64,000 bases of DNA from Candidatus Woesebacteria bacterium. GTDB lineage: Bacteria; Patescibacteriota; Microgenomatia; UBA8517. The stretch is from positions 500,790 to 564,789 of the forward strand of contig OY970314.1 in assembly GCA_963716475.1 (NCBI GenBank), read 5' to 3'. Of the stretch, positions 28,377-62,978 are shown piece after piece. The position numbers and the translations under genes were made by a program. The notes beneath the pieces were generated by a model that worked only from the letters and a program-made list of their open reading frames with translations, was not told the origin of the DNA and searched no databases. How positions within the stretch are numbered: position 1 is the stretch's first letter; each line of letters opens with the position of its first letter.

Positions 28377-28469
28377 CGTGATAATATTATCAGTTTTTAT
28401 TCTAGAGTATCATATCAAACTAAACAAATATTGAAACGGTAATCTTATGTATAATAAATAACAATTTCA

Positions 28470-30575: not shown

Positions 30576-30601
30576 AATACTCGTTTACTACATTGAGCTT
30601 T

Positions 30602-33241: not shown

Positions 33242-33242
33242 A

Positions 33243-34759: not shown

Positions 34760-34773
34760 AGATTTTTCGGCAA

Positions 34774-35946: not shown

Positions 35947-36006
35947 TTGTTTTTACTGCTAGTTTCTTAATTTATTTTTTAAATATAGTCTCACTTTAAT
36001 AATTTC

Positions 36007-42922: not shown

Positions 42923-43257
42923 TAATCTTTCTTCTTGGTTTTTAGCGCTTCCAGTCTTACCAGCTCTTCCAGTTTTTTCTCAAGCTGCTTGGTTCTAACA
43001 TATGCAACTGCAACCATCGAAATTACCAATATGAAGCCTCCAATGACCATAAGATCAAAAACCCTTGTTACTAAAAAAGTCTTTGCAAACGATTGAAGAA
43101 GTTCCGGAAAAATTATAATGATAATGGCAATCGTCCACATAATGAGCCAGGAAACTATCTCTGTGCCTCCTAATTCCCCTCTTTTAAAGTGAAGAACGGC
43201 AAAATATATCATGCTGAAAGCGAAAAGCAGGGCAATAATTTGTAGTCCGATAATCAT
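42922..43257 (-). CDS. small 3-TM membrane protein with a C-terminal coiled-coil tail, DUF2304-like (occupies a GtrA-like position)
   Basis: 111 aa. MIIGLQIIALLFAFSMIYF...VSWLIMWTIAIIIIIF...VFDLMVIGGFILVISMVAV, then KQLEKKLEELVRLEALK. Confidence 0.5.
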   Translation of the reverse strand: MIIGLQIIALLFAFSMIYFAVLHFKRGELGGTEIVSWLIMWTIAIIIIIFPELLQSFAKTFLVTRVFDLMVIGGFILVISMVAVAYVRTKQLEKKLEELVRLEALKTKKKD

Positions 43258-43261
43258 TTTG

Positions 43262-44895
<1,634 letters not shown>

Positions 44896-47545: not shown

Positions 47546-48569
47546 CCGAGATTATTTTATATATTTCCAATGTATCTTTAGAGGTCTTATCCCAGGAATA
47601 GTCCCTTGGAAGTTTTTTATTAATATTTGGGTTTAAAATAGCTTTTGCCATTGATTTTATGTCATTTGGGTCACAGTAAGAGAAATCATCTCCCATAACC
47701 TCCACCAGACATTGAGACCTGGCTATTGCTACCGGTGTACCACAAGCAACTGCCTCAACGGCCGGGAGGCCGAAACCTTCGTAAAAAGAGGGTTGAACAT
47801 ACACCGTCGCCAAATTATATATCGCAGCCAAATCCTCATCCGGAATAAACCCCGGCCGGATTGTGTTTGTCCAATCAACATCTTTGAGATGCTTAAGCTC
47901 GGCGTGGCGCAAATCGCTGTTTTCGATTCCTTTGGCTTGCTTACCGCAAATTACCAACGGCATTTTTGCAATTCTGCAGGCTGCGACCATTCCCGGAATA
48001 TTCTTGTTGTAATTAACATCACCGACATACAAAGCAAAACGGTCAGGAAGGGTATACTTCTCTTTAGCTGCAATTAGTAAATCACGATTAGCTATTGGTT
48101 CAAAAACGGTACGGGGAGCAAGATAAATTACATACACTTTTCTTGGGTCCACCCCCAAAAATCTGCAAATATCCTTTTTGGAAGTTTCTGAAATCGTGAT
48201 AATCGCATCTACATTTTTCCTAACCATTTCTTTATTTTTCAAAAAATTAACTTTACCTCTCACGCCGGAAGGGTAATGCTTGGGGTAAATTAAAGGAATC
48301 AAATCGTGTATCGTCAGGATAACTTTGGCTTTAGGTTTGTCGGAAGGTAAATCCGTAAAAAATGGTCTGAAATATTGAAAGTGGACAACGTCAAATCCTA
48401 AAAAACCTCTTTTTGAAAAATCAAACTCGTATATTTGTATATCCTTATGTGGAACAAGTTTAAATCCCTGCAAAAGCTCCCTGGTATTCACTCCGATCCC
48501 CCTGACAGCGTGCCCCGAAGTTAAGGGGCCTGAATCAACTGCAACCTTAAGCATGTTTAAATTATACAT
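47535..48569 (-). CDS. glycosyltransferase family 4
   Basis: 344 aa. VYVQPSFYEGFGLPAVEAVACGTPVAIARS. Confidence 0.8.
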   Translation of the reverse strand: MYNLNMLKVAVDSGPLTSGHAVRGIGVNTRELLQGFKLVPHKDIQIYEFDFSKRGFLGFDVVHFQYFRPFFTDLPSDKPKAKVILTIHDLIPLIYPKHYPSGVRGKVNFLKNKEMVRKNVDAIITISETSKKDICRFLGVDPRKVYVIYLAPRTVFEPIANRDLLIAAKEKYTLPDRFALYVGDVNYNKNIPGMVAACRIAKMPLVICGKQAKGIENSDLRHAELKHLKDVDWTNTIRPGFIPDEDLAAIYNLATVYVQPSFYEGFGLPAVEAVACGTPVAIARSQCLVEVMGDDFSYCDPNDIKSMAKAILNPNINKKLPRDYSWDKTSKDTLEIYKIISGEK

Positions 48570-48619: not shown

Positions 48620-49348
48620 ATGTTATTCGGAATGATCAATAAATCAAAACATTTTGAAAATTACTTATATTTACTTGTTCTTTCCTTAGCCAATTTTTGG
48701 ATCTGGCAAATTTATTCAAATAATTTTATTCTCGGGATTATTTTATTAGCAATTGAACTTGGGCTTTTCGTTCTAATCACAAAAAAGGATTTGAAAAGAA
48801 ATTGCATATTCACTATTTTCATATCGGTTTTGCTCCTATTGGTTCTTGGCGTCATTCTTTTAATGGGTGAGTTTGACAACACCTTATTAACCACCTCTCC
48901 AACCGAAACAAGTATTCTTAACCAACGGCATGGTTATTTAGCTGAAGGTTTAGGAAAAATCTTTACTAATAAGTACGTTCTGCATTTCTACAAGCTACAA
49001 GAATATGGCACGGCTACCGGAAAGTATTTACAAAATGTTTTTTATAGCCTAGACCCAAATCTATACTTTTTCCGAAGCCACCCAAGAGAGAAAGCCGGGA
49101 TTGACGAATACAATAAATACTCCCCCATCGTTTTACCTCTTTTTGTAATAGGCGTTTTATTTTTAACAATTAACTACCATAAATATAAATTTTTGGTTTT
49201 ATATTCCATACCGGCAATATTATTTACGGGTTTCATCAGTCCCAAGTACAAACTTGGTCCACTGCTAATGTTTCCGCTTATAAATATAATCCTTTATCTG
49301 GGACTTATTGCGGTCATATCGAAAGTCAGACCATTATTTAAAAAGTGA
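48620..49348 (+). CDS. membrane protein (hypothetical)
   Basis: 242 aa, about 6 TM. 4-bp overlap with the downstream PMT_2-like gene. Confidence 0.4.
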   Translation: MLFGMINKSKHFENYLYLLVLSLANFWIWQIYSNNFILGIILLAIELGLFVLITKKDLKRNCIFTIFISVLLLLVLGVILLMGEFDNTLLTTSPTETSILNQRHGYLAEGLGKIFTNKYVLHFYKLQEYGTATGKYLQNVFYSLDPNLYFFRSHPREKAGIDEYNKYSPIVLPLFVIGVLFLTINYHKYKFLVLYSIPAILFTGFISPKYKLGPLLMFPLINIILYLGLIAVISKVRPLFKK

Positions 49349-51003
49349 AAACAAAAAAAATATTTCTACTGATATTATTTGTCATTATTTTATGTGCCGC
49401 CTGCTTCGTCAGGTTATACAAACTTGGGGAAATTCCGGCCGGGGCCTACCTTGACGAGGCTTCGCTGGGATACAATGCCTATTCGCTATTATTAACAGGC
49501 AGAGACGAATTTGGCAAAAATTGGCCGATATATTTTAGAGCTTTTTCGACCTTCCAAGACTCACTTTACGGCTATTTTAGTATTATTCCTGTTTATTTTC
49601 TTGGTTTAAGTATTTTCTCAACACGATTGGTATCGGTAATTTCGGGGTCAATTGTTGTTCTGATTACTTTTTTACTTTTTTATTACTCGGATCTCAAAAA
49701 TAAGTTAAGTCTGGCGCTTCTTGCCGGCCTTACGGTAGCATTTACACCTTGGGCGATCTACCAAAGCCGCGTGGCTGTTGGATCTAATTTAGGCTTGGCT
49801 TTAACAGCCATTAGCATCTTATTATTATTTTTATCCCTGAAAAGGGAATGGTTTTTTGTGCCCGCTTGTGCCTTTTTTGGGATTGCTTCTTATGCTTACG
49901 CCGGCCAGCGAATTACGGGCATATTATTTCCGATTGTCTTCGTACTAATTAATAGGAAAATATTTTCGCAATCTAAGAAGCTGGTCGTGATTGGTTTTGC
50001 GCTCTTAATACTTATTATGCTGCCGCAATTTATGGCACTATCTCACACGGGTTCATTAGTCAGATACCAAACACAAGGTTATACGCAAGAAAGTACTTTT
50101 CTGAAAAATGGAGATTCTTTAGTCAAATTACCGATTTTTGTAGGTTGGCCTTTGTATATAGTTAGGCAATTCACAAGTCAGTATCTTTCCGACTTTTCTC
50201 CCAGAAGCCTATTCTTTGAGCCGGAACCGCAACTTGTTAGATCTATTCCGGGCTTAAGTGTTTTCTATGTCTGGATGATTATTCCTTTCTTTATCGGTTT
50301 CGCCCGATTATGGAAAGAAAAATCAAATCCCTTAATACAAATCATATTTCTATTGATGATTATCGGACCTTTGCCGGAAGCTTTAACAGGTGACCCTTTC
50401 TATACCTTAAGGATGCTGCCCGGCTTATGGGGAATGACACTACTGGTGTCGTTCGGTATTTATGCCATCTTTGACAAGTTCAAACATAACTATGCAAAAA
50501 TCCTGTTGGCGGCATTTCTGATTGCTATTTCCGGTCTTAATTTTTATATAAGCTACTTTATTTTATTAAAACATGAACGTTCCGTATATTTCGGCTACCC
50601 TTTCCAGGTCCTGGCGGAAATTACGGAAGAAAACAAAAGTCAGACGTTTGTTTTGGATTCTGAGATTTATGACGCTCCTTATATCTGGATGGCTTTTTAT
50701 AAAAAATATGATCCTGTGGAATTGCAAGCTCAAACACCACCAGGCTTACTTAATCACTATTATGACGATTTGACTTTTTACAAATATAGAACGATCGGTA
50801 ATGTGGAAGTAAGAAAGATAAATTGGGGCGTTGACCAATGTAAAGACGAATATCTGGTTGGTGATATAACAGCTATATCTGACACTCAGGCCAAAGAACA
50901 CAAATTTACTCTTATTAGAGAAGTTAAAGATTTAACAGGAAAAACCATACTCTGGATTTATCGCACTAATCCCCAGCCGGAGTGCATCAATACTACAGAC
51001 TAG
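49345..51003 (+). CDS. PMT_2/ArnT-like GT-C-fold membrane glycosyltransferase (paralog 2 of 6)
   Basis: 552 aa. Loop-1 motif GAYLDEASLGYNAYSLLLTGRDEFGKNWPIYFRAF; second motif YQSRVAVGSNLG. Confidence 0.65.
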   Translation: MKTKKIFLLILFVIILCAACFVRLYKLGEIPAGAYLDEASLGYNAYSLLLTGRDEFGKNWPIYFRAFSTFQDSLYGYFSIIPVYFLGLSIFSTRLVSVISGSIVVLITFLLFYYSDLKNKLSLALLAGLTVAFTPWAIYQSRVAVGSNLGLALTAISILLLFLSLKREWFFVPACAFFGIASYAYAGQRITGILFPIVFVLINRKIFSQSKKLVVIGFALLILIMLPQFMALSHTGSLVRYQTQGYTQESTFLKNGDSLVKLPIFVGWPLYIVRQFTSQYLSDFSPRSLFFEPEPQLVRSIPGLSVFYVWMIIPFFIGFARLWKEKSNPLIQIIFLLMIIGPLPEALTGDPFYTLRMLPGLWGMTLLVSFGIYAIFDKFKHNYAKILLAAFLIAISGLNFYISYFILLKHERSVYFGYPFQVLAEITEENKSQTFVLDSEIYDAPYIWMAFYKKYDPVELQAQTPPGLLNHYYDDLTFYKYRTIGNVEVRKINWGVDQCKDEYLVGDITAISDTQAKEHKFTLIREVKDLTGKTILWIYRTNPQPECINTTD

Positions 51004-51014
51004 AACAAATATTT

Positions 51015-51746
51015 TCAGTACGAGTCTTTAATCCAGTCGAAATAGCGGATAGAGAGAAGTTCGTGGAATGACCTTACCATATCACCCGGGAAACGGACTC
51101 TTGTCTGTTTATCGTTTTTCCATACCACAGGTACTTCTTTAATAGAAAATCCATACTTTTTAGCCAAAAACAATGTCTCTGAATCAAAACCCCAACGAAA
51201 AATTTTCGTCTTATGAAAAATTTGTTGGGCGGCTTCTCGGGAAAAGCATTTAAAACCGCAGGTAAAATCTGTGACCTTGGTGTTTAATATTAATCGCGAA
51301 AGCAAAGTAAATATTTTTCCAAGATTTTCCCTTAAAAAAGGCTGATGCACAACAACTTCTGCTCCCTTGACTTTTCTGGTCCCTATAACCACATCATATT
51401 GGTTGATAAATTGACTGATCTTTTTTATTTCATCTATGGGTGTCGAAAGGTCTACATCCATAAATAATCTAAACTCACCAACTGCCGCCAACATTCCTGT
51501 TTTAACAGCATATCCTTTTCCACGGTTGTTTCTATAACTTATAAGCCTAAAGTCTGATTTCTTCTTGAGAAATTTGAGTCTTTCAAGAGTGTTGTCAGTA
51601 CTTCCGTCGTCCACGACAATAAGTTCCCACGGCTTATCAAGTCCCCGCAAATACCGGAGTATATTAACTATGTTATCAACACGTGTAGCCTCGTTATAAC
51701 AGGGAACAATAATAGACCAGAAAACGCTTTTTTGTTTTACTGTCAC
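51015..51746 (-). CDS. GT2 polyprenyl-phosphate sugar synthase (DPM1/GtrB-like)
   Basis: 243 aa. IIVPCYNEATRV...LIVVDDGSTDNT...FMDVDLSTP...CGFKCFSREA. Confidence 0.75.
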   Translation of the reverse strand: MTVKQKSVFWSIIVPCYNEATRVDNIVNILRYLRGLDKPWELIVVDDGSTDNTLERLKFLKKKSDFRLISYRNNRGKGYAVKTGMLAAVGEFRLFMDVDLSTPIDEIKKISQFINQYDVVIGTRKVKGAEVVVHQPFLRENLGKIFTLLSRLILNTKVTDFTCGFKCFSREAAQQIFHKTKIFRWGFDSETLFLAKKYGFSIKEVPVVWKNDKQTRVRFPGDMVRSFHELLSIRYFDWIKDSY

Positions 51747-51768: not shown

Positions 51769-54117
51769 ATGATATTACTATTAGTTTTGTTTAACTTGAT
51801 CCTGTTTGCGCCGATGCTTCATGGTCTTATCCCCCTGCCTACAGATGCCCTCGCCGGTGTCTATTACCCTTGGGCCGGACAATTTTGGGGATTTGTGGCC
51901 GGAATTCCTTACAAAAATGTCTCTCTAACGGATGTCTTTTCTCAACTATATCCCTGGCGAAGCCTGGCGATAGATTTAATCAAACACGGCAGTCTGCCAT
52001 TATGGAACTCTTTCTCCTTCTCCGGATATCCCCTCCTGGCCAACTGGCAATCCGCACCGTTTTACCCTCTGAATCTACTGATGCTCATATTTGGAAATCC
52101 CCACGGATACGGGTTGATGGTTTTTCTGCAACCGGTTCTTGCTGCCTCATTTATGTATATTTTCCTTCGTCAGCTGGGTCTTTCCAAGGTGGCTGCGGGC
52201 GTGGGAGGGTTGGTTTCTGCATATTCAGGGTTTGTCATGGTTTATTTGGAATATGCAACCATTGGTCAAATAATGGTTTGGCTTCCGCTGGTCTTGTATC
52301 TCTTTGAGAAATATTTTGAAAAAAAACAGATTCGTTTCTTGGCCTTGTCGTCCATCTGCCTATTCCCGGTACTAACCGGCGGTTTTTTCCAACCTGCATT
52401 CTATGTCATCTTGATTGCGTCACTTTATTTTCTTTTCCGCTCCCTATCGCTTCCGGAAGCGGTAAACAAGACTCGTTTGATTACTTTAGGCGCCGTTTTC
52501 ATTTTGGTCGGAGCGACCACAGCTGCCGTACAACTGCTACCTACGGCCGAACTTCTGAAATATTCGATAAGAAATCTGGACCAGAATATCATCGAATATC
52601 ATTATGGCCTTCTGCCCGTTCAGAACCTTATTTCATTTTTAGCTCCGGATTTTTTTGGAAACCCTGCGACGCAAAATTATTGGGGGGTAATCCAGTATCA
52701 GGAAGTAACGGGGTACTTTTCGGTAATTGCCCTCGCGTTGGCGCTTGCGGGGCTTTTCACCAAAAAAAGGAACTGGATGTTAAATCTTTTCTCCGGACTA
52801 TTTATCGGGTCAATACTTCTTGCCTTTGATAACCCGATAGGCAGACTTATTTATCAACTTAAAGTTCCTCTTCTTGCTACCGGGTATGCTTCCCGCTGGC
52901 TCATAATAACAGCATTCTCGGGAGCGTTTCTTGCAGCAACCGCAATTGAAAGATTTAATCAAAAAAAACTAGCCGTTATTCTCTGTTCCTTACTGGATAT
53001 ACTGATTTTGATTTATGGACTGATTTGGAAAGGCGTTATTCCGGTAAATCTTAACTACATCCTTGTTGCATTAAGGAATCTTTTACTACCAATTGCTTTA
53101 CTGGCAGGGGGTGTCACCATTTGTATTTTTATCAGAAATAAAAACTGGGCAAAATGGCTGCTTTTAATACTCATCGTTTTTGATCTGGGCCGTTTTACGA
53201 TGAAATTCACACCCTTCTCCGATCCTCAGTACACCAGCCGCGCTGTCCCGGTTTTCGAATACATAAAGAGCCAGACCAATATTGATCGTGTGATAAGTGA
53301 AGAGGGCCCTGTCCTTCCTGCCAATACCTGGATGTATCCGGAACTTTATTCACCAACCGGTTACGATCCGCTCTTGATAAAAGACTATGCAGTCTTTTTT
53401 GATGGTCTAAATATGGGTCTGGTAAATAAACCGGATTTAAGCGGCAGGTTTGACCAGATTAACTTTACACGCTATTTAAATCTCGCCAATCTTAACTCTC
53501 CGCTTCTTGACTTGGTCGGAGCAAAATATCTACTGGCCATAAAATATGATCAGTGGGGGCAAATAAGTTCTGTGGGGAAAATAAATGAAGCCAAAGTAGA
53601 TTTGACCCGCTATAAACCCGTATTTGAAGACGGAGAAACTGTTGTATTACAAAACCAAACAGTACTTCCAAGAGTTATTCTATACTACCAAGCGGAATCG
53701 GAAACAGACAATGTACAAGCGGCAGAGAAATTGGTAACGGGTTTTGATTTTCGAAACAAACTCCTTATTGACAAGGAAAATCCTACACAATATATGCCGG
53801 GAGAAAACGATACGGTTGAAATTGCCGAATATTCCGCTAACAAGGTTGATTTTCAGGTAAAAACTCAAAGTGGAGCATACTTTTTTCTATCGGACACTTT
53901 CTTCCCTGGTTGGCAGGTTTCTATCAACGGGAAGTCGGGCGAAATTTTACGTGCAGATAGCATCTTCAGAGCCGTTGAGGTTCCGCCGGGTGAATCACAA
54001 ATTGAAATGGTTTACTCGCCAAATAGCTTTAAGGTCGGCGCTATTATTTCGATAATTTCGCTTACGATACTGCTGATTTTGACATTTAAAAAACCACTTA
54101 ATCACGACACTAACTGA
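51769..54117 (+). CDS. YfhO-family GT-C-fold membrane glycosyltransferase
   Basis: 782 aa. N-terminal loop SQLYPWRSLAIDLIKHGSLPLWNSFSFSGYPLLANWQSAPFYPL is the YfhO signature. At least 12 TM, a large C-terminal extracytoplasmic domain, and a final TM. Confidence 0.7.
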   Translation: MILLLVLFNLILFAPMLHGLIPLPTDALAGVYYPWAGQFWGFVAGIPYKNVSLTDVFSQLYPWRSLAIDLIKHGSLPLWNSFSFSGYPLLANWQSAPFYPLNLLMLIFGNPHGYGLMVFLQPVLAASFMYIFLRQLGLSKVAAGVGGLVSAYSGFVMVYLEYATIGQIMVWLPLVLYLFEKYFEKKQIRFLALSSICLFPVLTGGFFQPAFYVILIASLYFLFRSLSLPEAVNKTRLITLGAVFILVGATTAAVQLLPTAELLKYSIRNLDQNIIEYHYGLLPVQNLISFLAPDFFGNPATQNYWGVIQYQEVTGYFSVIALALALAGLFTKKRNWMLNLFSGLFIGSILLAFDNPIGRLIYQLKVPLLATGYASRWLIITAFSGAFLAATAIERFNQKKLAVILCSLLDILILIYGLIWKGVIPVNLNYILVALRNLLLPIALLAGGVTICIFIRNKNWAKWLLLILIVFDLGRFTMKFTPFSDPQYTSRAVPVFEYIKSQTNIDRVISEEGPVLPANTWMYPELYSPTGYDPLLIKDYAVFFDGLNMGLVNKPDLSGRFDQINFTRYLNLANLNSPLLDLVGAKYLLAIKYDQWGQISSVGKINEAKVDLTRYKPVFEDGETVVLQNQTVLPRVILYYQAESETDNVQAAEKLVTGFDFRNKLLIDKENPTQYMPGENDTVEIAEYSANKVDFQVKTQSGAYFFLSDTFFPGWQVSINGKSGEILRADSIFRAVEVPPGESQIEMVYSPNSFKVGAIISIISLTILLILTFKKPLNHDTN

Positions 54118-54129
54118 CAGCCTACCTGA

Positions 54130-55236
54130 TCATACCCTTTTCTTTAGAAGGCCCACCAACAAGGAGGAAAGATTCAGATAAGCGTAAGGCAAGATTATTA
54201 AGAAATATCTTGTAAAGGGTACCTGTGTACTGGTTAAAAGAAGATAACCAATTGGTAGTAAATAAAAGAAAAACCTTAAGTCTTTCAACTTTGTTTTAAA
54301 GATTAGAAATACTGAAGCAAGAAAAGATATTGGCCAAAGAAAACTCCAGTCTCCTATGTGTATTATTCCGTTTTGCCACCACGGAAGAAAATAGCCGCTG
54401 ATAAATAATGCTATCGGACCTCCCGGAACACCTGCCGAATTGTGCGCCAACATATACCTTAAGACCTTGCCTTGATAAATAACTATGTTGAAATCTCCAT
54501 AATTGTTGATAAAAGTTTTTATATATAAAAGACTGTATGTGATAAGTGTAGTCAGCAGTACCAATCCTATCTTTTTAATATTGAGTCTTTCCTTCCTAAT
54601 GAATATTTTGTATATGGTAATTAAAAAAACAAATATAACTGCTGTGGACCAAAATTTGGAAGCAGCAAAAAGACCCAGTGTGATTCCCTGTAAGATAAAA
54701 CTTTCAGGATAAAAAAACATCAGAATAACAAAACTTAGAGCAAAAACCGTTTGCCCCAGGTCCAATAACGCCCCGTTCATCATGCCTCCAAAAACAGGGT
54801 CAATTAATAAAAGGGTAGTTCCAATTAAGGAAACTGCCCGGTTTTTAAATAGTTTCATCCCCAAAAAGTAAGTCAACCAAAGAAGTGCTATACCAAAAAC
54901 AATTTGGACATAAAAAGGATTTCCAAAAGCAAGGATGCTAAAACCGAAAAGGTATTTAATGAGTGCCGGAACTTGGAAATCATACCCCGTCGGGTCTGCC
55001 CCTTTTGCGTAAAGATACCCCGAGGCAATATAGAGATCGCTGTCGGAAAGGAAAATTCTATCTTTAATGGCATTACCTTTATCCTCGATGTCCTGAGATC
55101 TAAGATACTCGGATATCAAATTTACATTAAACTTATATTTAAAAAGGTCCTGATGTTTTAGAAAAAGAAAGCCTAAAAACAGTAGAGTAATAAAAGCATA
55201 CGGAAGAATCTTTTTTAATCGGAAAATTAATTTCAT
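54130..55236 (-). CDS. polytopic membrane protein, possible GT-C (hypothetical)
   Basis: 368 aa. Acidic loop DRIFLSDSDLYIASGYLYAKGADPTGYDFQVPAL after TM1. Confidence 0.4.
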   Translation of the reverse strand: MKLIFRLKKILPYAFITLLFLGFLFLKHQDLFKYKFNVNLISEYLRSQDIEDKGNAIKDRIFLSDSDLYIASGYLYAKGADPTGYDFQVPALIKYLFGFSILAFGNPFYVQIVFGIALLWLTYFLGMKLFKNRAVSLIGTTLLLIDPVFGGMMNGALLDLGQTVFALSFVILMFFYPESFILQGITLGLFAASKFWSTAVIFVFLITIYKIFIRKERLNIKKIGLVLLTTLITYSLLYIKTFINNYGDFNIVIYQGKVLRYMLAHNSAGVPGGPIALFISGYFLPWWQNGIIHIGDWSFLWPISFLASVFLIFKTKLKDLRFFFYLLPIGYLLLTSTQVPFTRYFLIILPYAYLNLSSLLVGLLKKRV

Positions 55237-55248
55237 ATAAAACCGATC

Positions 55249-56094
55249 TTACTTACTTGCAGTAATGTATTTAAAATAAGCGATCGGAAAATGCATAGCG
55301 GAAAAGAAGCTCCAAAGGAAACCGCCGGACCCGTCCAAAAACCCCAAATGGCGAAAATAGAGGTTTAAAAAGGTTCTTAACGGATAGTAAATAGTAAACA
55401 GCAAAAATGCAATAACACCTTTCGAAACCTTGTTGTCTCCAAGCTCTTTAGCTTTTAAATCGGTATAACGGTTGAAACGTACCAAATAGCGTTTGAGTGT
55501 TGGTGAATCATAATGCTCAAGGTCGCTGCTGAGCCAACCGACTTCACCATCTAGTTCAATCTGTTCGTGCACGGATCTTTGAGGGAACCTTGATTTCCCG
55601 TTTTTAACCAGGCGGATTACCCCATCAGGGTAGACCCCGGCGTGGATTAACGGTTTACCCAAGAAAATATTTCTTCTGGGAATAAAGTATCCGACAATTT
55701 CGCCGGTTTTTTTGCCTATCGGACCATCCCTTTCCTCTATGAGTTTTTGATGACGTAGGAACAGCTTATTGTAATTCGTAACCGGTAGTCGATGATTAAC
55801 GACAGAAATAATTTCTTTCGCCAATGCCGGCGTCACGGCCTCGTCCGCATCAAGCTGGAGTATCCATTCACCGGAGGCTTTTTCTAGAGCTTTTTGCTTG
55901 GTAACATGGAAAATGTCATGGTGGGGTTCAAGAAATATTTTTGCACCATTCTTTTTGGCAATCTCGACCGTTTTATCCGTCGAGTACTCGTCTACAACAA
56001 CAATTTCATCTGCTATATCTTTAACAGATTCAAGGCAACGACCAATATTAGTCTCCTCATTTCTGACTGCCAGGACAACAGATAGTTTGAACAT
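55249..56094 (-). CDS. glycosyltransferase family 2
   Basis: 281 aa. LSVVLAVRNEETNIGRCLESV...IVVVDEYSTDKT...LQLDADE; C-terminal hydrophobic helices. Its start codon overlaps the stop of the upstream PMT_2-like gene (TAATG). Confidence 0.8.
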   Translation of the reverse strand: MFKLSVVLAVRNEETNIGRCLESVKDIADEIVVVDEYSTDKTVEIAKKNGAKIFLEPHHDIFHVTKQKALEKASGEWILQLDADEAVTPALAKEIISVVNHRLPVTNYNKLFLRHQKLIEERDGPIGKKTGEIVGYFIPRRNIFLGKPLIHAGVYPDGVIRLVKNGKSRFPQRSVHEQIELDGEVGWLSSDLEHYDSPTLKRYLVRFNRYTDLKAKELGDNKVSKGVIAFLLFTIYYPLRTFLNLYFRHLGFLDGSGGFLWSFFSAMHFPIAYFKYITASK

Positions 56095-57656
56095 TAGTCA
56101 AAAGTACTCCTCGCGGTTACCAGGAAAAATGCATCCGACCCATTGGGATATTTTACAGCGTAAACGGTTTCAAATAAAAGCTGGTATTTTAAACCAGTGT
56201 AAACCGACGGCGTAACCACATATAAAACATGCGGAATCGGTTGACTATCAATAGGGTCCCAAAGGCCAAAATGATACTTTGAATATCCGGCTACGGTATT
56301 TGCCGGTCTTGATTGGGTTTCGTTATATTTAACAGTCTTCAAATATAAGGACAGAGGAGTTTTAAGATAAAAAAGATAGAAAATGTAAGGCTGCTGCCTT
56401 TCCGGAGTCATGTAGACCTCATCGTATTCCGGATGGGCTTTCACAAACTCAACGACCTGTTTCATTCCGTATTGCCATTCAATTGCATACCTTTTGGTGT
56501 AAACACCAAAATAATTTCGTATATAACCGAATAACGAAACTCCCAGAATGCCGGTTATTAATAGACCCACCGCAACTTTTATGTATCTGTTCTTAAACAT
56601 TTTTATTATCGTAAACACACCTAGGGCCGCAATAAGATGCCAACTTCCCGTCATAAACATTGCCCGGGCGGCGTGAGGTGCTTCGCTTGTTACACTCGCA
56701 GGTATCGGGGCCAGAAGAGCCCATGCTAAAACAATCAAATATTCTTTTTTACCTCTGAATATTCCCCAAATCAGGGCAATAACTCCTATTATTAAAAAAA
56801 CAATATCAACCTTGTAAAAAGTACCTGTTTGACCGGAAAGTCTGGGGTTACTGTCCCCTTGTACAAAGAGAAAGTTATATGAAAAATGCTCTAAATATTT
56901 TTTGGTGATAGCCTGGATGTTTCTTTCCTGAGGAGAAGATGTCTGCTTGAATCTTGCCCCACCGAGGAGAGCCGGCTCCACAAAAAATAAACTGACGAAA
57001 ATAAAAAATGCCAAAAGCCCCGCAAAAAAATATTTTTTATCCTTCAGAAGGTCCTTAAAATAGATAATAGTTATCAAAAGGAGTAGCGGGGGAACCAGCA
57101 CGGTTGCACTTTGATACGCAAGCAGGTCAAGACCCAAAGAAGCGAACCCCAATACTATTAAATAGTTCCTTTTTTCAAGACCTTTTAATATAAGGTAAAA
57201 ACCCAGCATGAAGAAAAAAATCGCGAAATTCAGTTCATGATTAAATCGTGAAAAGTGTATGTTATATGGCGAAATCGTTAATATTAACGAGGCTATAAGC
57301 CCTGCCCAACTGCTATCAAAGATCTTCTTACCCAGAAAAAAGATTATTGCTACGTTAAGGACTCCGAACAGTGCGGAGGAAGCTCTAACTCCTAATTCGT
57401 TAAGACCGAAAACCGCAATCGTCGGTACGGTTAAATAAATATGAACGGGGTGCTTATCATCTTCAAATGATTTAAAAATCAGGGGTAGTGTTTTACCCCA
57501 TTCGTCTTTTCCCCAATGTAAGATTGTCCAGGCATTATAACCGACAGCTGTCTCATCCCAACTTATAGAAGGAGGGGCACTGCTCAATTTATAGAAACGT
57601 AAAATCGCAGCCAAAATTAAAATAGCTGCAAAGATAATTAAGGTTAACTTTTTCAC
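56094..57656 (-). CDS. PMT_2/ArnT-like GT-C glycosyltransferase (paralog 3; tandem copy 4 of 4)
   Basis: 520 aa. SISWDETAVGYNAWTILHWGKDEWGKTLPLIFKSF; IHFSRFNHELNF. Confidence 0.65.
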   Translation of the reverse strand: MKKLTLIIFAAILILAAILRFYKLSSAPPSISWDETAVGYNAWTILHWGKDEWGKTLPLIFKSFEDDKHPVHIYLTVPTIAVFGLNELGVRASSALFGVLNVAIIFFLGKKIFDSSWAGLIASLILTISPYNIHFSRFNHELNFAIFFFMLGFYLILKGLEKRNYLIVLGFASLGLDLLAYQSATVLVPPLLLLITIIYFKDLLKDKKYFFAGLLAFFIFVSLFFVEPALLGGARFKQTSSPQERNIQAITKKYLEHFSYNFLFVQGDSNPRLSGQTGTFYKVDIVFLIIGVIALIWGIFRGKKEYLIVLAWALLAPIPASVTSEAPHAARAMFMTGSWHLIAALGVFTIIKMFKNRYIKVAVGLLITGILGVSLFGYIRNYFGVYTKRYAIEWQYGMKQVVEFVKAHPEYDEVYMTPERQQPYIFYLFYLKTPLSLYLKTVKYNETQSRPANTVAGYSKYHFGLWDPIDSQPIPHVLYVVTPSVYTGLKYQLLFETVYAVKYPNGSDAFFLVTARSTFD

Positions 57657-59074
57657 TTAAATTGAAATCCGTTGAATGACGCTACCTTTGAAAATCCCCA
57701 ATCGCTAACCGGGTTTAGCTTCACCTCTTCCCTGAATTTTTCCGGAGGATATTTCAGGTAATAGAGAGCAAAGATATAAGGCTGAGCATACTTATCGGAA
57801 ACCACACCGCTTTTTTGATTCGCAAAAATTTCCTTATATTGATACTGCCAATCAGAAGCGGTCTCGGAAGAATATTTTGTCAAAAAATCAACCATGTACG
57901 ATTCGAAAGACAAGTAGTAAGCCGCAATTACAACCAAAAGGATAACTGTACTAAATTTTTTGATATTTTCTCTTAAGAACATGACACCCAGAGCTGACAT
58001 TATGGCAAGTGAAGGAGCCGCAAGGAGTGCTCTTAACGCATGGGGTGATTCTTTGGTCAAGGCTGCGGGAATCGGAGCAATCAGAAGCGTTGCCAAAGGC
58101 AAAAAGTATAATATTTTTTTACTTTTAATAATTGCGAGTAAGCCTAAAAGTATCAGGGGAGCTTCAAATAAATAAAGCTCACCGTGTCCCGGAATTTGAC
58201 TGCGGGGATTGGTATCACCTTTGAAAAATAAAAATTGGGGGTCAAAATGGGAAAAATAGTTTTTAACAAAATCCAGCTTACTCGTAATTTGCACTTCAGC
58301 AAACCTCGCCCCACCCGAATCGTATTTATAAAGTCTATAAACCGGAATTAAGCTTAATAAGAATAATGTTATAGAAATGATAAGAACAACCGGATACTTG
58401 CGGTCTCTGATAAACTCGCGAAACTTGTAGACAAAAAGTAAAACCATCCAAATAGGAACAATTATCCGGAATGAGTTGTAACTGTAAAAAGATAAAATAA
58501 AACTTAATGTTGCAGCCAATAAATAATATTTGTTTTTGGGGAGAAGCAGAAACAAATACGTAGCGAGTAAAAAGAAAAATAGGCCCGCGGTGGCTTCATA
58601 TCCGGTTCTTGAAAATATAAAAAACCACGGAGAAAAACTTAGAATAAAGCTTGCCAGGATCGCAATACTCTCTTTGCCGGTTATTTTCTTGGTTAATAAA
58701 TAGACAACAATCAAAGTTCCCAACGAATACAAAACTGCCGGAAGTCTGACGGCATATTCATTTAAGCCTATTGTCTTAACAAATATGGCTACTGAATAAA
58801 TGTAGACCGGAAGCTTAAATTCGCCGAAGGCGCGAAAATGCAGAGGAAGTGTCACTCCCCATTCATCTTTCAGGTCGGTCGCAATCGAATAAGCATTATA
58901 TCCTATCGAGGCCTCATCCCAATAAACGGATTGCGGTATTTCTGCAATTTTATATATTCGGGTAGCAAGAAAAAGAACCAATACAAAGGCGAAGATTATT
59001 TTTCGTTTAATGAACGCATTATTTCGCATTTTTTTCAACAATATCAAATGCCCTATTACCGTTAAGGAAATCAA
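57653..59074 (-). CDS. PMT_2/ArnT-like GT-C glycosyltransferase (paralog 4; tandem copy 3 of 4)
   Basis: 473 aa. SVYWDEASIGYNAYSIATDLKDEWGVTLPLHFRAF; FIFSRTGYEATAG. The start is probably the internal MRNNAF..., which reduces the overlap with the upstream paralog. Confidence 0.65.
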   Translation of the reverse strand: MISLTVIGHLILLKKMRNNAFIKRKIIFAFVLVLFLATRIYKIAEIPQSVYWDEASIGYNAYSIATDLKDEWGVTLPLHFRAFGEFKLPVYIYSVAIFVKTIGLNEYAVRLPAVLYSLGTLIVVYLLTKKITGKESIAILASFILSFSPWFFIFSRTGYEATAGLFFFLLATYLFLLLPKNKYYLLAATLSFILSFYSYNSFRIIVPIWMVLLFVYKFREFIRDRKYPVVLIISITLFLLSLIPVYRLYKYDSGGARFAEVQITSKLDFVKNYFSHFDPQFLFFKGDTNPRSQIPGHGELYLFEAPLILLGLLAIIKSKKILYFLPLATLLIAPIPAALTKESPHALRALLAAPSLAIMSALGVMFLRENIKKFSTVILLVVIAAYYLSFESYMVDFLTKYSSETASDWQYQYKEIFANQKSGVVSDKYAQPYIFALYYLKYPPEKFREEVKLNPVSDWGFSKVASFNGFQFK

Positions 59075-60677
59075 CAGTCAAAAGTCTTGGTAAATTATCA
59101 GGGAAGTCGCCGGATTTTCCTATAAACAACATTTTCTTCCCGGGATTTGCATTAACAATGTCTTGATAGTGAGTTCCGGTATCACCAAGGTCCGGAAAAT
59201 AAAACTTATCAAACTTGAGAACCCAAATCCATTGATTGGCCTCAAAACGGTCAAGGTTCGGGTCATTCTGATACTTTGCCGGGTCCCAGTTCAAGAAAAA
59301 AAGAGTAAACATGTGAGGCTCTCCGTAAGTCCGGCTGAAAACTATCAGGTCATAGTTGTTATAGTGCTCTTTTATATAACCTACTGCTTGCTTATAACCA
59401 TATTGCCAATCGCGTGAATATAGAACAGGATAAATATTGTAATAATTATTTAAATATCCTTTGAAACTGAAGGCTAGTGCAATTACTGACGCAGTCATTA
59501 CTACCCAACGGATAATATTCTTCCGGCTTAGCAACTTAAATGTCTTGTAAATACCAAGAGCGGTAAATATTTGATACGGAATTGCCGCCAATAGTGTTCT
59601 TAGTGCGTTAGGAATACTGTCAACCGTTGCCGATACAGGAATAAATGCCAAAAGTAACCATGTTACGAGTAGCCACCTCCATTTATTTTTGTTCCTAAAA
59701 AGAAAGAAAAGACCGATTAAAATAAACGGTGCCTGAATTGCATACATTTCCCCAATCCCTTGAACGTGTTGTTGCTTATGCCCCGCGCCATTTATAAAAA
59801 GGAAGTCGGGAGTAAAATGACTAAGGTAATTCCCCACGAATACATAAACATAATGTGTTACTTTATTGTGAATAAGACGGGGTAGCGGTTCAGGAAGACG
59901 TGTATTACCACGCGCTTCATTTATCCGAAGCGTAAATCCCGGATCATCTGTAATACTTACCAGATTAAACCTGGCTGTTGCCTCCCCGCTTATTACAAAG
60001 CTTGCAAGTGGGATCATCGACAACAAAAAAACCAGTAGGCTAAGAATAAATATTCTGGTATTTTTCAAAATATCTTTTTTATAAATTAGGAAAAGGGCTA
60101 GTACAAATAGTGGAGTAAAAACCCGTGCGGCATTATAAGTATAAATTGAAATAATAAAAGGTATTGTCGAGGCTAACCAATATTTTTTGTTTGTAAATCC
60201 CTTGATAAAAAGCCACACCCCAAGGGTAACCCAGAAAACCGAAAATGAGGATTCAAAAGATACCCTAGTCAGCTGAATATGCCAGGGGGAAATTGCAAGA
60301 AAAAATGAGGAGGTTAGAGCAATCCACTCGTTTTGAAAAATTTCCTTGGCCAAGAAATAAAGAAGTAACACCGTCAATGTTCCGTAAATGACAGGAGTAA
60401 TCCTTACTCCGAGCTCGTTAAGACCGAACATTGCAATTCCCGGAATCGAAGCATATATCTGCGCCGGAAGTTTATACTCACCGTAAGATTTAAAATGAAC
60501 AGGCAAAAGCTGCCCCCACTCGTCTCGGCCGGTTTTGAGAACGGAGTAGGCGTTGTAGCCGATTGATACCTCGTCCCAGTTGAGTGATGGCGGATCAGAA
60601 GTAACCCTATATAGCCTCAGGAATAAAGCCAGCGCGACAACCAAGAAAAGAACAATCCTGGATAAATTACGCTTCAT
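59019..60677 (-). CDS. PMT_2/ArnT-like GT-C glycosyltransferase (paralog 5; tandem copy 2 of 4)
   Basis: 552 aa. SLNWDEVSIGYNAYSVLKTGRDEWGQLLPVHFKSY; IQLTRVSFESSFS. Confidence 0.65.
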   Translation of the reverse strand: MKRNLSRIVLFLVVALALFLRLYRVTSDPPSLNWDEVSIGYNAYSVLKTGRDEWGQLLPVHFKSYGEYKLPAQIYASIPGIAMFGLNELGVRITPVIYGTLTVLLLYFLAKEIFQNEWIALTSSFFLAISPWHIQLTRVSFESSFSVFWVTLGVWLFIKGFTNKKYWLASTIPFIISIYTYNAARVFTPLFVLALFLIYKKDILKNTRIFILSLLVFLLSMIPLASFVISGEATARFNLVSITDDPGFTLRINEARGNTRLPEPLPRLIHNKVTHYVYVFVGNYLSHFTPDFLFINGAGHKQQHVQGIGEMYAIQAPFILIGLFFLFRNKNKWRWLLVTWLLLAFIPVSATVDSIPNALRTLLAAIPYQIFTALGIYKTFKLLSRKNIIRWVVMTASVIALAFSFKGYLNNYYNIYPVLYSRDWQYGYKQAVGYIKEHYNNYDLIVFSRTYGEPHMFTLFFLNWDPAKYQNDPNLDRFEANQWIWVLKFDKFYFPDLGDTGTHYQDIVNANPGKKMLFIGKSGDFPDNLPRLLTVDFLNGNRAFDIVEKNAK

Positions 60678-60704
60678 TACTATTAATTATGCCTTAAAAT
60701 GCTT

Positions 60705-62327
60705 TTACTTGCACACTATTTTTGTGGAATAACCAAAAAGAATGGGTTTCCCCAAGTAATCGGGAACCGTAAACTCTTCATGGAGTTTGTGTGTAATAAT
60801 CTGTAGCGAAGAAACGGATAGCTCGTCCCCGACTATAATCAGGTTTGGTCCACACACTTTAGTCCAATCCAGCGGCTTGAAGATGATATTACCGATCCTG
60901 TAAATTTCTTGAGCATTTACATCCCGACTATAGTAATTTGTTGTCAACTGAGCTTTCAGATTAGCCTGAACCAGCCTTGGATCAACTGATTTAAGATAGG
61001 TCATTCTGATACCCACCCCCCAGGCACGGGCATTGAAATCAACAACGATTTGCCTGTCTTTGTATTTATCCAAAACAGGCATCAATTCTACATAGGGCTC
61101 TCCGGAAGCTATCACTAGTTCATATTTAAGAATGACAAAGTACGATATCCCAAAAAGAATTAATGAGTAGCCGACTATTCCCAAGACGGCCAATAGCTTC
61201 AGCCATTTATTTTTTATCGCCCCCAGTACCACCCAGCACCCCAGCGAAACAATAAAAGCGACAACCCAAAGATAATCAAGAGTCCTTAGCGGATAAAAAA
61301 GATCCCCGGTTAGCGCGGCAGGGATGGGCGCGATTAAAAGTAAAGCTAGTATAATTTTTAAAAAATTGTTTTGCCTATTTTTAAACAGATAACCAAGGCC
61401 TATCAGAAAGGGAATAGCCATCCAGGGATAATAAACTCCCATGTCGGGCGCAGTTCTTCCAAGACTGCTACCCGGATCAAAAAATAGGTTTTTTGGTGAA
61501 ATGTAGATTAGATAATGATTACTAAATTGTTTAGCGGCTTCCAGAATTTTTCCTCCAAAATTTATTTTCTCTTCAAAAATATTCCCAAAATATGTTACTT
61601 GGCTTAATCTTTTCGTTAAAGCTCCTGTTGTCAATAAATACAAGTGCGGCAAAAGGATTAATACAAAAATTCCTAAGCCCAGTGCTGTGGTTTTTTTTGT
61701 TTTCAGGAAAATTTTTCGATAGATTAAAACAACGAATGCCAAAAGTAGCACCGATGTTACCCTTTCAGAATAATAAGCATGAGTAGAAAGTCCCAAAACC
61801 AGACAGGCTAAAGGAAACAGTGAAATCTTTTTCAAGGAACTGGCCAGTAAATATACACCGGCCATAAAGATAAGGACTCCTACGTTGGCCTCAACCGCCA
61901 CCCTGCTAAAGAGAATGGCCCAGGGAGAGATTGCGACAATTCCGGAAGTAATTAAACCAAGTGTAACTCCGTCTTTTTTACTTCCGAGGAAGAGCCTGCT
62001 TACAAAAAAATAGGTTAATAAAACCAATCCCACACCGGATACCGCCGAAACTACTTTGACCGTAAAAATACTATCACCCAAAAAAACTGTCGGGATTATT
62101 GTCAGATAAGTATAAATTGGCGGTTGATACGAACCGTTTGCTCTAAAAAGTATGGGAAAACTTTTTCCATACATATCTTTACCTGTTTTCAGGATCGAGA
62201 AAGCGTTAAATCCCTGAGAAGCTTCGTCTGCGTGTAACCCGGGAGGAACTGTATCCAATTCATAAAATCTTAAAATAACAGCTATAAAAACAATTATTAT
62301 TAATATTATTTTTTGAAATTTATTCAT
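60705..62327 (-). CDS. PMT_2/ArnT-like GT-C glycosyltransferase (paralog 6; tandem copy 1 of 4)
   Basis: 540 aa. GLHADEASQGFNAFSILKTGKDMYGKSFPILFRAN; ILFSRVAVEANVG. Confidence 0.65.
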   Translation of the reverse strand: MNKFQKIILIIIVFIAVILRFYELDTVPPGLHADEASQGFNAFSILKTGKDMYGKSFPILFRANGSYQPPIYTYLTIIPTVFLGDSIFTVKVVSAVSGVGLVLLTYFFVSRLFLGSKKDGVTLGLITSGIVAISPWAILFSRVAVEANVGVLIFMAGVYLLASSLKKISLFPLACLVLGLSTHAYYSERVTSVLLLAFVVLIYRKIFLKTKKTTALGLGIFVLILLPHLYLLTTGALTKRLSQVTYFGNIFEEKINFGGKILEAAKQFSNHYLIYISPKNLFFDPGSSLGRTAPDMGVYYPWMAIPFLIGLGYLFKNRQNNFLKIILALLLIAPIPAALTGDLFYPLRTLDYLWVVAFIVSLGCWVVLGAIKNKWLKLLAVLGIVGYSLILFGISYFVILKYELVIASGEPYVELMPVLDKYKDRQIVVDFNARAWGVGIRMTYLKSVDPRLVQANLKAQLTTNYYSRDVNAQEIYRIGNIIFKPLDWTKVCGPNLIIVGDELSVSSLQIITHKLHEEFTVPDYLGKPILFGYSTKIVCK

Positions 62328-62333
62328 CTTGTT

Positions 62334-62978
62334 TTAATTTTTGAAGAGTCTTCCTATATTTTTTACGCCCATTAATAATCCTAAATTGATTAATGGAATA
62401 AATAGCCAATAAGCCACATCGGGAGGAACCAGAATGGCCCCCACAGTCGCCAAACTAAGATAATATAAGGTTGGTTTTATTTTTTCAGAAAGCATAACCA
62501 AAAATCCCAAGGTAAAAAGGGGAAATAATATCAATGAATAAAATGAATAATTCTCAGATGAAAAATAATGAGATATTTCATACGGTTCCGTAATTTTTTG
62601 ATTTACCTTGTCAATAATCAGTTTCGTCTGTTCAATAAATTTATTTCCGAAGTTGTTTCTCCCGATGAAGCCCAGTTCTCTTCTGTAAAGTTCTTCCCTT
62701 TCCCACAATATGTTTTTCTCAAAGTTTGTAATCTTAAAAGTATCCTTATATATGCCGCTCCCGATAATAAATATACCGACAAAAATCGGTAAGGCTAATA
62801 ATATAATTATTCTTAGTAGATAATTGTGAGACTTTTCCGCGATTACAAAATATAGCAGGGTACTTTGGAAAAAAGTAAAAACTACCAGCCATATGGTTGG
62901 TGAAGATCCGGGTTTAAAAAAAACAACAATTAATGCCAAAAATAGTAACGACAGGGTTGTACTTCTTTTGAAAATCAT
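62334..62978 (-). CDS. membrane protein (hypothetical)
   Basis: 214 aa, about 6 TM. 4-bp overlap with the upstream GT2 gene. Confidence 0.4.
   Translation of the reverse strand: MIFKRSTTLSLLFLALIVVFFKPGSSPTIWLVVFTFFQSTLLYFVIAEKSHNYLLRIIILLALPIFVGIFIIGSGIYKDTFKITNFEKNILWEREELYRRELGFIGRNNFGNKFIEQTKLIIDKVNQKITEPYEISHYFSSENYSFYSLILFPLFTLGFLVMLSEKIKPTLYYLSLATVGAILVPPDVAYWLFIPLINLGLLMGVKNIGRLFKN

Follow-up and report, generated by a model that had tools for sequence, protein, structure and literature searches.

Tandem ArnT/PMT-like GT-C glycosyltransferase paralogs and a conserved gene trio in a glycan-synthesis region of Candidatus Woesebacteria

In protein O-mannosyltransferases (PMTs), which possess 11 transmembrane (TM) helices, a DE motif in the first loop is the catalytic hallmark and is functionally essential (D77/E78 in ScPmt1, D55/E56 in Mtb Pmt), and in ArnT residues D55 and K85 are likewise essential (PMC8698208). 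Extracytoplasmic glycosylation has precedents in three-component systems, which combine a family 2 glycosyltransferase (GT2), a flippase and a GT-C enzyme (PMC11127046). Here we describe related genes in a 64,000-nucleotide (nt) stretch of a Candidatus Woesebacteria genome (assembly GCA_963716475.1, contig OY970314.1, positions 500,790 to 564,789), hereafter called the window. Its minus strand carries four consecutive genes, named G4, G3, G2 and G1 in the order of transcription, which probably encode non-redundant GT-C glycosyltransferases of the ArnT/PMT-like PMT_2 branch that transfer lipid-linked sugar at the outer face of the membrane. The best explanation of their distribution is that G3, G2, G1 and the GT2 gene that follows are translated together as a module of ancient origin in Microgenomates-type bacteria of the Candidate Phyla Radiation (CPR), with G4 in a variable upstream slot.

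The list of open reading frames (ORFs) confirms that the four genes lie side by side as the preliminary description had it, but the operon is larger than these four. A tight minus-strand block with gaps of at most 27 nt runs from a GT2 gene of 251 amino acids (aa) through the gene of a 214-aa membrane protein, G4, G3, G2, G1 and a second, 281-aa GT2 to the gene of a 368-aa membrane protein (Table 1). The size range of 473-552 aa first given for the four proteins probably does not hold for G2. Its ORF was listed with a TTG start (57653-59074, TTG at 59074, 473 aa) that looks over-extended, and the ATG at 59029 is preferred because it gives an N-terminus (MRNNAFIKRK...) in line with the short N-termini of the paralogs. 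With this start, and read on the coding strand, G3 and G2 overlap by 11 nt, G2 and G1 (GTG start) share a GTGA overlap, and G1 is joined to the 281-aa GT2 gene by TAATG. G4 and G3 are separated by a 27-nt spacer without overlap, so that among the GT-C genes overlaps join G3, G2 and G1 but leave out G4. The translational coupling originally extended to all four thus applies to the junctions from G3 to the GT2 gene but not to that between G4 and G3. As for the smaller junctions, the 251-aa GT2 and 214-aa genes share an ATGA overlap, 6 nt lie between the 214-aa gene and G4, and 12 nt between the 281-aa GT2 and 368-aa genes. As far as the sequence can tell, this organisation supports co-expression of G1-G3. 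Scans of the window for promoters and terminators were uninformative, promoter-like sites being fewer than in shuffled sequences and every terminator-like site lying within coding sequence.

Two further copies occur elsewhere in the window (copies 5 and 6), and sequence comparison indicates that all six are truly homologous. The paralogy of the four clustered genes is borne out by BLASTP, with identities of 32% for G1/G2 (E 9e-61), 30% for G1/G3 (E 3e-80), 34% for G2/G3 (E 1e-87) and 24-31% between G4 and G1-G3 (E 1e-31 to 3e-21; 8e-30 against G1). Copy 6 matches G4 over its full length (37% identity, E 6e-90) and also G2 (E 3e-35), and copy 5 matches G3 (27% identity, E 1e-31), so both additional copies are real as well. 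In a collection of protein clusters G1, G3, G4, copy 5 and copy 6 are placed on a single contig of 982,852 bp, whereas the 458-aa form of G2 is absent from it. In the alignment the loop-1 D-E dyad is present in six of six copies, but the fuller W-D-E...GYNA...DEWG motif is a property of G1-G3. G4 carries A-D-E and GKDMYG in place of W-D-E and DEWG, and the triplet reads N-D-E in copy 5 and L-D-E in copy 6. In addition, K68 (G1 numbering) is replaced by Gln in G4 and copy 6, where E52 is often lost too. The loop-1 signature once attributed to the whole set therefore survives in all six only as the dyad, W-D-E and G(K/R)DEWG being confined to the trio.

The conservation of the trio was assessed by scanning GTDB species representatives with G1. 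This gave 42 loci (labelled in the style of L020), all in Microgenomates-type metagenome-assembled genomes (MAGs), in which synteny was called by best match. In about 36 of the 42, from Woesebacteria and Daviesbacteria, G3, G2, G1 and a GT2 of the 281-aa type follow one another in the same order on one strand. Median distances are -4 nt from G3 to G2 (n=32 loci), -4 nt from G2 to G1 (n=34) and 0 nt from G1 to the GT2 gene, which follows G1 in 36 loci. Exceptions are three loci in which a second G1-like copy replaces G2 (L029, L037, L040) and one with an altered order (L033). Downstream, the cassette usually continues with a GT4 gene and a PIG-V-like GT-C gene similar to those of the window. 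In the window itself it is broken after the 281-aa GT2 gene by about 6.5 kb that hold the 368-aa gene, a YfhO gene with a PgfS-like GT2 gene, and a 242-aa gene with copy 6. G4 lies upstream of G3 in only about 5 of the 42 loci, where it is preceded by the 251-aa GT2; in the others this slot holds between one and four different, divergent paralogs of the PMT_2 type, in many loci drawn from the copy 5 clade (20 sequences).

When 184 members of the family were placed in a neighbour-joining tree with 24 bootstraps, separate clades emerged for G1 (45 sequences, 41 loci, 20/24), G2 (37 sequences, 36 loci, 20/24), G3 (37 sequences, 36 loci, 23/24) and G4 together with copy 6 (11 sequences, 24/24). 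An exclusive clade of G1, G2 and G3 was found in 0/24 bootstraps, as other paralogs interleave with them. Orthologs are 42-84% identical against 30-34% between the paralogs of the trio, which, with the separate clades, places the triplication before the divergence of these lineages. Median ortholog lengths are about 473 aa for G2, 531 for G1 and 551 for G3, G2 being consistently some 60-80 aa shorter. That the genes had diversified rather than remained redundant, as proposed at the outset, is strengthened by these distinct ortholog clades kept in fixed order in some 36 genomes. That the copies arose recently and are redundant or used in alternation, without separate functions, as with seroconversion-type variable copies, is highly improbable: the tandem arrangement, the common architecture and the variable slot upstream of G3 (G4, copy-5-like or PMT_2-like) would fit it, but the paralogs (24-34% identical) are far less alike than the orthologs which dozens of species-level genomes carry at the matching position, no signature of direct repeats or recent duplication is seen at this divergence, ORFs and catalytic residues are intact in all copies, and for G1-G3 the orthology analysis contradicts it.

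Profile searches agree with the GT-C assignment first proposed. With Pfam gathering cut-offs of 26.1 bits for PMT_2 (PF13231) and 22.7 bits for PMT (PF02366), G1, G2, G3 and copy 5 score 57.8, 38.9, 38.0 and 28.0 bits against PMT_2, and G1, G2 and G3 score 33.2, 25.5 and 37.3 bits against PMT. G4 falls just short of the PMT_2 cut-off at 22.5 bits, copy 6 has no Pfam match, and PF02366 does not match G4, copy 5 or copy 6. Despite these sub-threshold results, the relationship of G4 and copy 6 to G1-G3 is clear by BLAST (E 1e-30 to 1e-35). Most G4 homologs carry precomputed PF13231 matches, and in Woesebacteria and Daviesbacteria they are annotated as 'glycosyltransferase family 39'. All NCBIfam matches of the paralogs are sub-threshold, including the Agl23-type TIGR03663 and the ArnT equivalog NF009784 (15.7 bits against a cut-off of 567). 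ArnT is also the sole match of G1 in a sequence-profile search of the PDB (E 1e-5). There the family segment K68-H-P-V-H is aligned with K-P-P-F-H of ArnT, whose lysine, at SEQRES position 88, may be K85. The family is large, with 2,987 clusters at 50% identity matching G3 at E <= 1e-30. Its named relatives, from Candidatus Woesebacteria, Daviesbacteria and the 'Patescibacteria group', are called 'glycosyltransferase family 39 protein', '4-amino-4-deoxy-L-arabinose transferase-like' or 'phospholipid carrier-dependent glycosyltransferase'.

From an alignment of 62 sequences AlphaFold2 gives a confident model of G1 (pLDDT 93.5, pTM 0.92), which confirms the GT-C fold. It contains 11 TM helices, the first spanning residues 3-21 and the last ending at about residue 389 of 520, so that the 'polytopic N-terminal half' of the preliminary description is inexact; the TM domain makes up about 75% of each protein. 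Loop 1 comprises 65 residues with two juxtamembrane helices (33-48 and 77-83) and a beta-hairpin, and D34-E35 stands directly after TM1 at the start of the first of these helices. Short inside loops hold 7 Lys/Arg in 22 residues and short outside loops 2 in 20. By the positive-inside rule the protein thus starts on the inside, which places the DE loop and the C-terminal domain both outside the cytoplasm; for loop 1 the fold agrees. The position of the dyad, for which an extracytoplasmic location had been foreseen, is that of the catalytic DE motif of PMTs and of D55 in ArnT (PMC8698208), in agreement with its early reading as a PMT/ArnT hallmark. The C-terminal part (about residues 390-520, some 130 aa) is a small alpha/beta domain. 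No carbohydrate-binding module (CBM) or other carbohydrate-binding fold was found in it, and it is here that the residues missing from the window copy of G2 lie. A (D/E)-W-Q-Y-G segment opens this domain immediately after the last TM helix (G1 residues 393-397, also in G2 and G3). In position and sequence it bears a superficial likeness to the WWDYG motif of oligosaccharyltransferases (OSTs). On this model, the shared build is best explained as a short cytoplasmic N-terminus, 11 TM helices, a large outer loop 1 (D34-E35, D51-E52, K68-x-P70) and a small outer alpha/beta C-terminal domain.

When the G1 model was compared with the PDB by Foldseek, ArnT came first (5ezm and 5f15, E 1.5e-8 and 4.6e-8, TM-score 0.56-0.59), followed by AglB, STT3 and PglB (E 8e-8 to 5e-6), Pmt4, ALG12 and ALG9, DPY19, EmbC and EmbA-EmbB, and Pmt1-Pmt2. 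The best 42 matches are all GT-C enzymes or subunits of related complexes. Transporters such as GLUT3 appeared only at E >= 0.07 with TM-scores of about 0.1, by which a transporter identity is rejected. The proteins are of GT-C fold and members of Pfam PMT_2 and would work in the manner of ArnT, PMT or GtrC-type enzymes, and on the specific tests they do not come out as ArnT, classical PMT, OST or Emb.

Residue conservation was defined as at least 90% within each of the G1, G2 and G3 clades together with identity in all three. Thirty-eight positions qualify, among them W33, D34, E35, D51, E52, K68, P70, E141, Y181, R235, R331, W394 and Q395. The outer loops, which make up 27% of the protein, contain 23 of these, the outer C-terminal domain 6, the TM helices 9 and the inner loops none. 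With 38 invariant residues in common, none of G1-G3 is a degenerate pseudo-enzyme. Strictly clade-diagnostic positions number only five, all on the outer face: they are H/Y/Q at 72, four residues after K68, S/S/T at 136, D/D/A at 268, R/R/Q at 272 and Q/Q/E at 422. In sequence terms, this pattern fits a common chemistry with diverged specificity.

How such enzymes might operate can be proposed from fold, family, topology, paralogy and orthology, active-site conservation and gene order, which are directly supported, to a donor type, an outer-face acceptor and a sequential action, which would be as follows. Cytoplasmic GT2s encoded in the block and nearby would load a monosaccharide onto polyprenyl phosphate, and the lipid-linked sugar would then be flipped across the membrane. 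At the outer face each GT-C paralog would move the sugar to a site of its own on one glycoconjugate of the cell surface, the paralogs differing in position, sugar or acceptor; the glycoconjugate might be a glycopolymer or lipoglycan, or secreted or S-layer proteins. By analogy, the donors of G1-G4 would most likely be polyprenyl-phosphate sugars made by the adjacent synthase-like GT2s.

Several points weigh against this proposal. The likeness to ArnT is remote (14-15% identity, with the modest TM-scores given above), and OSTs score nearly as well by fold, so that a polyprenyl-diphosphate-oligosaccharide donor is also possible. Searches of the block with Pfam and NCBIfam revealed no flippase of the GtrA family, and wherever the GT2s match polyprenyl-phosphate sugar synthases, their scores fall far short of the equivalog cut-offs. 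The GT2 partner of the trio resembles, in its N-terminal part, cytoplasmic protein or peptide glycosyltransferases (GmaR, SunS) and not GtrB or DPM1. Genes often overlap by a few nucleotides in CPR genomes, which are compact, and such overlaps are therefore weak evidence for functional coupling, and the locus survey, being seeded with G1, does not measure how often the trio is absent. Finally, a literature search, with most subscription journals outside its coverage, returned no biochemical characterisation of any member of the subfamily.

Could the proteins be PMTs in the strict sense (GT39)? Ser/Thr residues of secreted, pilin or S-layer proteins would then receive mannose, or a different hexose, from polyprenyl-phosphate, the paralogs differing in their substrates. 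This is possible but rather unlikely. G1-G3 do exceed the PF02366 cut-off and share the DE motif and the 11 TM helices of PMTs (PMC8698208), but PMT_2 outscores PMT for G1 and G2 and scores about equally for G3. Pmt4 and Pmt1-Pmt2 are among the fold matches, but the alignment to most PMT entries covers only about 260-300 columns, and no PMT_4TMC or MIR domain was matched by Pfam at E <= 0.01 in the paralogs. Against the family 39 names given to relatives at NCBI stands ArnT as the only PDB sequence match. The mannose-1-phosphate guanylyltransferase of the window would suit mannosylation, but the neighbourhood is mostly polysaccharide-type machinery (phosphoglycosyl transferase, Wzx, Wzy_C), which speaks against this reading.

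A second view, which we hold to be somewhat less probable still, takes the trio, with or without G4, for an obligate hetero-oligomeric GT-C complex whose subunit stoichiometry is set by translational coupling. Gene order is fixed with 4-nt overlaps in about 36 genomes, conservation is equally strict in all three clades, and GT-C structures among the fold matches are paralog dimers (6p25, Pmt1-Pmt2; 7bvc and 7bvf, EmbA-EmbB); PMTs are reportedly obligate dimers (PMC12705809). A complete active site in all three proteins suits independent enzymes equally, however, and the loci in which G2 gives way to a second G1-like copy or the order is changed speak against an obligate assembly. Such a complex would also be compatible with non-redundant outer-face transferases and is not an exclusive alternative. 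In a more far-reaching version, which we regard as speculative, G3-G2-G1, perhaps with the GT2, would form a lineage-defining obligate three-subunit GT-C machine that builds a CPR-specific lipoglycan or glycoprotein coat of the envelope, the upstream slot supplying exchangeable specificity subunits. Such a machine would correspond, in bacteria, to Pmt1-Pmt2 or EmbA-EmbB, except that its active subunits would be three and all different.

En bloc transfer of a pre-assembled glycan from polyprenyl-diphosphate to protein or another acceptor, as by OSTs, is improbable. AglB, STT3 and PglB do come next after ArnT in the Foldseek ranking, the (D/E)-W-Q-Y-G segment with its invariant W394 and Q395 is reminiscent of WWDYG, and a Wzx protein and a phosphoglycosyl transferase are encoded in the window, but the archaeal STT3 match of G3 in NCBIfam (E 2e-4) reaches only 19.6 bits against a cut-off of 450. 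Moreover, none of the window paralogs matches the Pfam STT3 domain, neither STT3 nor WWDYG itself, by which OSTs are recognised, was found in them, and the G1 model has 11 TM helices, not 13.

Non-redundant GT-C transferases at the outer face are also in keeping with a setting that is almost wholly devoted to glycan synthesis (about 55 kb of the window). Besides the genes of Table 1 it holds numerous genes of the GT4 and GT2 families, others for methyltransferases and one for a DegT aminotransferase. Of the about 57 genes in the 64 kb, some 15 specify polytopic proteins of glycan processing that are GT-C-like or related (PMT_2, PIG-V, DUF2079, YfhO, DUF6056, Wzy_C).

Table 1. Features of the glycan-synthesis region, by position in the window
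Feature	Position	Strand	Remarks
Phosphoglycosyl transferase	6881-7531		WbaP-type
Mannose-1-phosphate guanylyltransferase	7542-8741
PMT_2 match	12084-13559
Wzy_C protein	13543-14979
Copy 5	17261-18958	plus	565 aa; more distant GT-C paralog
DUF6056 protein	20016-21422		GT-C-like
GT4, C-terminal piece	22447-22989	minus	180 aa; Glycos_transf_1
GT4, N-terminal piece	22895-23248	minus	117 aa
PMT_2 match	23245-24666
Flippase	25521-26807		Wzx-type
PMT_2 match	26820-28376
Low-G+C segment	28000-40200		G+C 0.29-0.35
PMT_2 match	36007-37371
GT2	40360-41460	plus	AglJ-like; polyprenyl/dolichyl-phosphate sugar synthase-like, below equivalog cut-offs
Methyltransferase, remainder	41450-41980	minus	176 aa
Methyltransferase, first piece	41919-42131	minus	70 aa; GCGTG S-adenosylmethionine (SAM) motif
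DUF2304 membrane protein	42922-43257	minus	111 aa
GT2, PpgS-like	43262-43951	minus	polyprenyl/dolichyl-phosphate sugar synthase-like, below equivalog cut-offs
PIG-V-like protein	44907-46067		GT-C-like
DUF2079 protein	46064-47545		GT-C-like
GT4	47535-48569		type usual downstream of the cassette
242-aa membrane protein	48620-49348	plus	before and overlapping copy 6; no Pfam/NCBIfam match
Copy 6	49345-51003	plus	552 aa; GT-C paralog nearest to G4
GT2, PgfS-like	51015-51746	minus	polyprenyl/dolichyl-phosphate sugar synthase-like, below equivalog cut-offs
YfhO-family protein	51769-54117	plus	782 aa; GT-C-like
368-aa membrane protein	54130-55236	minus	polytopic; last gene of block; no Pfam/NCBIfam match
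GT2, 281 aa	55249-56094	minus	hydrophobic C-terminal tail; invariant fourth cassette gene; Glycos_transf_2 64.9 bits
G1	56094-57656	minus	520 aa; GTG start; GT-C paralog chosen for modelling
G2	57653-59029	minus	458 aa from ATG 59029; GT-C paralog; shortened C-terminal domain
G3	59019-60677	minus	552 aa; GT-C paralog, first member of conserved trio (ORF list)
G4	60705-62327	minus	540 aa; GT-C paralog (ORF list)
214-aa membrane protein	62334-62978	minus	about 5 hydrophobic segments; directly upstream of G4; no Pfam/NCBIfam match
GT2, 251 aa	62975-63730	minus	no TM; first gene of block; resembles polyprenyl/dolichyl-phosphate sugar synthases, below equivalog cut-offs

Judged by its NCBIfam matches, the 251-aa GT2 at the head of the block is a candidate maker of the lipid-linked donor (AglJ 1e-20, PpgS 5.6e-15, dolichyl-phosphate hexose transferase 2.6e-12); it has no sequence match in the PDB. 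Orthologs with 66-73% identity lie upstream of the array in ten loci (L002, L005, L006, L009, L010, L019, L024, L027, L039 and, inverted, L022). The N-terminal GT-A part of the 281-aa GT2 resembles GmaR (4e-15) and SunS (9e-11). The 368-aa protein, which shows weak similarity to G3 (E 0.018) and has a 64%-identical ortholog after the GT2 gene in L020, may be a GT-C-like protein that has diverged strongly and lacks the DE dyad.

Each member of the G4/copy 6 subclade in the window is directly preceded by the gene of a small polytopic membrane protein (214 or 242 aa). Between these two proteins there is weak similarity (E 0.002), and the 242-aa protein is also weakly like the central region of G3 (E 5e-4) and copy 5 (E 4e-3). 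A counterpart of the 214-aa protein with 29% identity occupies the same position in L005, and the pair of 242-aa protein and copy 6 is kept in L020 and L037. Such a protein might serve as a partner subunit, stand in for a flippase, or be a fragment split off from a GT-C. Among the small membrane proteins of the window the DUF2304 protein alone belongs to a family. It follows the PpgS-like GT2 (NCBIfam PpgS E 1.6e-27, below cut-off), an arrangement reminiscent of the mycobacterial PpgS/Rv3632 pair, which makes polyprenyl-phospho-GalNAc. The PgfS-like GT2 adjoins the YfhO-family GT-C, whose C-terminus weakly matches streptococcal PgfM1/PgfM2, and the two form a putative separate two-gene outer-face glycosylation unit inserted in the cassette.

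The segment from 28000 to 40200 is poorer in G+C than the rest of the window (0.38-0.43) and contains methyltransferases, GT2 and GT4 genes, a 454-aa protein of PMT_2-like type, a DegT aminotransferase and two unassigned polytopic proteins of 381 and 563 aa. It has the look of an island of glycan genes within the larger locus, either variable or acquired by horizontal transfer. A GT4 gene (22447-23248) appears to be split into two pieces in different frames with an overlap of about 95 nt, either as a frameshifted pseudogene or through an assembly error. A methyltransferase gene is seemingly split as well; in the convergent AglJ-like GT2 the N-terminal part has a match to a methyltransferase domain, limited to the C-terminal part of that domain, and both genes are kept in L020, L024, L026 and L029. 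Many related MAG records (L002, L006, L007, L009, L012 and others) are TPA assemblies titled 'uncultured Gammaproteobacteria bacterium' and yet carry the Microgenomates-type cassette at 48-68% identity; these organism names are probably wrong.

The class of enzyme is in itself unsurprising, relatives being already labelled GT39 or ArnT-like in databases, and it is the conserved trio that appears undescribed: a search of the literature for GT-C, GT39, ArnT and mannosyltransferase in CPR, Patescibacteria and Woesebacteria, with most subscription journals outside coverage, found no description of the array. The genomes of CPR/Patescibacteria are very small (here a contig of about 983 kb), and yet this one invests unusually heavily in outer-face glycosylation, with about 15 GT-C-like genes in 64 kb. 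Since genomes of Woesebacteria and Daviesbacteria type retain the ancient trio in fixed order, a complex and conserved glycoconjugate at the cell surface may well be among the core traits of these probably host-attached uncultured bacteria, and identification of the acceptor would offer a handle on envelope chemistry and cell-cell attachment. It would also add a compact GT-C subfamily (about 520 aa, 11 TM helices) for structure-function work.

Among known systems, ArnT, the undecaprenyl-phosphate-L-Ara4N:lipid A transferase (GT83; 5EZM/5F15), is the best structural and sole PDB profile match. It has in common with the paralogs the GT-C fold, an acidic residue at the start of loop 1, the lysine of a loop-1 K-x-P and an outer C-terminal alpha/beta domain, but differs in its 13 TM helices against 11, low identity, an equivalog score far out of reach and the DE dyad, which is PMT-like here. 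Lipid A would be an unlikely acceptor in a CPR bacterium. With the PMT/POMT enzymes (GT39, including actinobacterial Pmt) the family shares the DE motif, 11 TM helices and, in G1-G3, the Pfam PMT match, and PMTs are paralog dimers (6p25). Unlike them, the paralogs have no PMT_4TMC or MIR match, align only in part by fold and carry a distinct alpha/beta domain instead of the module after TM7.

The GtrB-GtrA-GtrC and CsbB-GtcA-YfhO systems (PMC11127046) may share with the block a polyprenyl-phosphate sugar synthase beside a GT-C, the 251-aa GT2 resembling such synthases at scores far under the equivalog cut-offs, and the YfhO with PgfS-like GT2 and the PpgS-like GT2 with DUF2304 elsewhere in the window are like them. 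The block differs in that no GtrA-family flippase was recognised and several GT-Cs accompany each GT2, not one; unlike GtrABC, it is a conserved core module and not a variable serotype-converting add-on. Most alike in arrangement is mycobacterial embCAB, with three tandem non-redundant GT-C paralogs of which some heterodimerise (EmbA-EmbB is a heterodimer, EmbC a homodimer). The Emb proteins (GT53, about 1,050-1,100 aa, 15 TM helices, large carbohydrate-binding C-terminal domains) belong to another sequence family and are twice the size of the paralogs, which lack a CBM fold. The two sets match in fold (7bvc, 7bvf, 7bvh). Emb proteins work outside the membrane and take their sugar from a polyprenyl-phosphate carrier, as is proposed here for the CPR paralogs.

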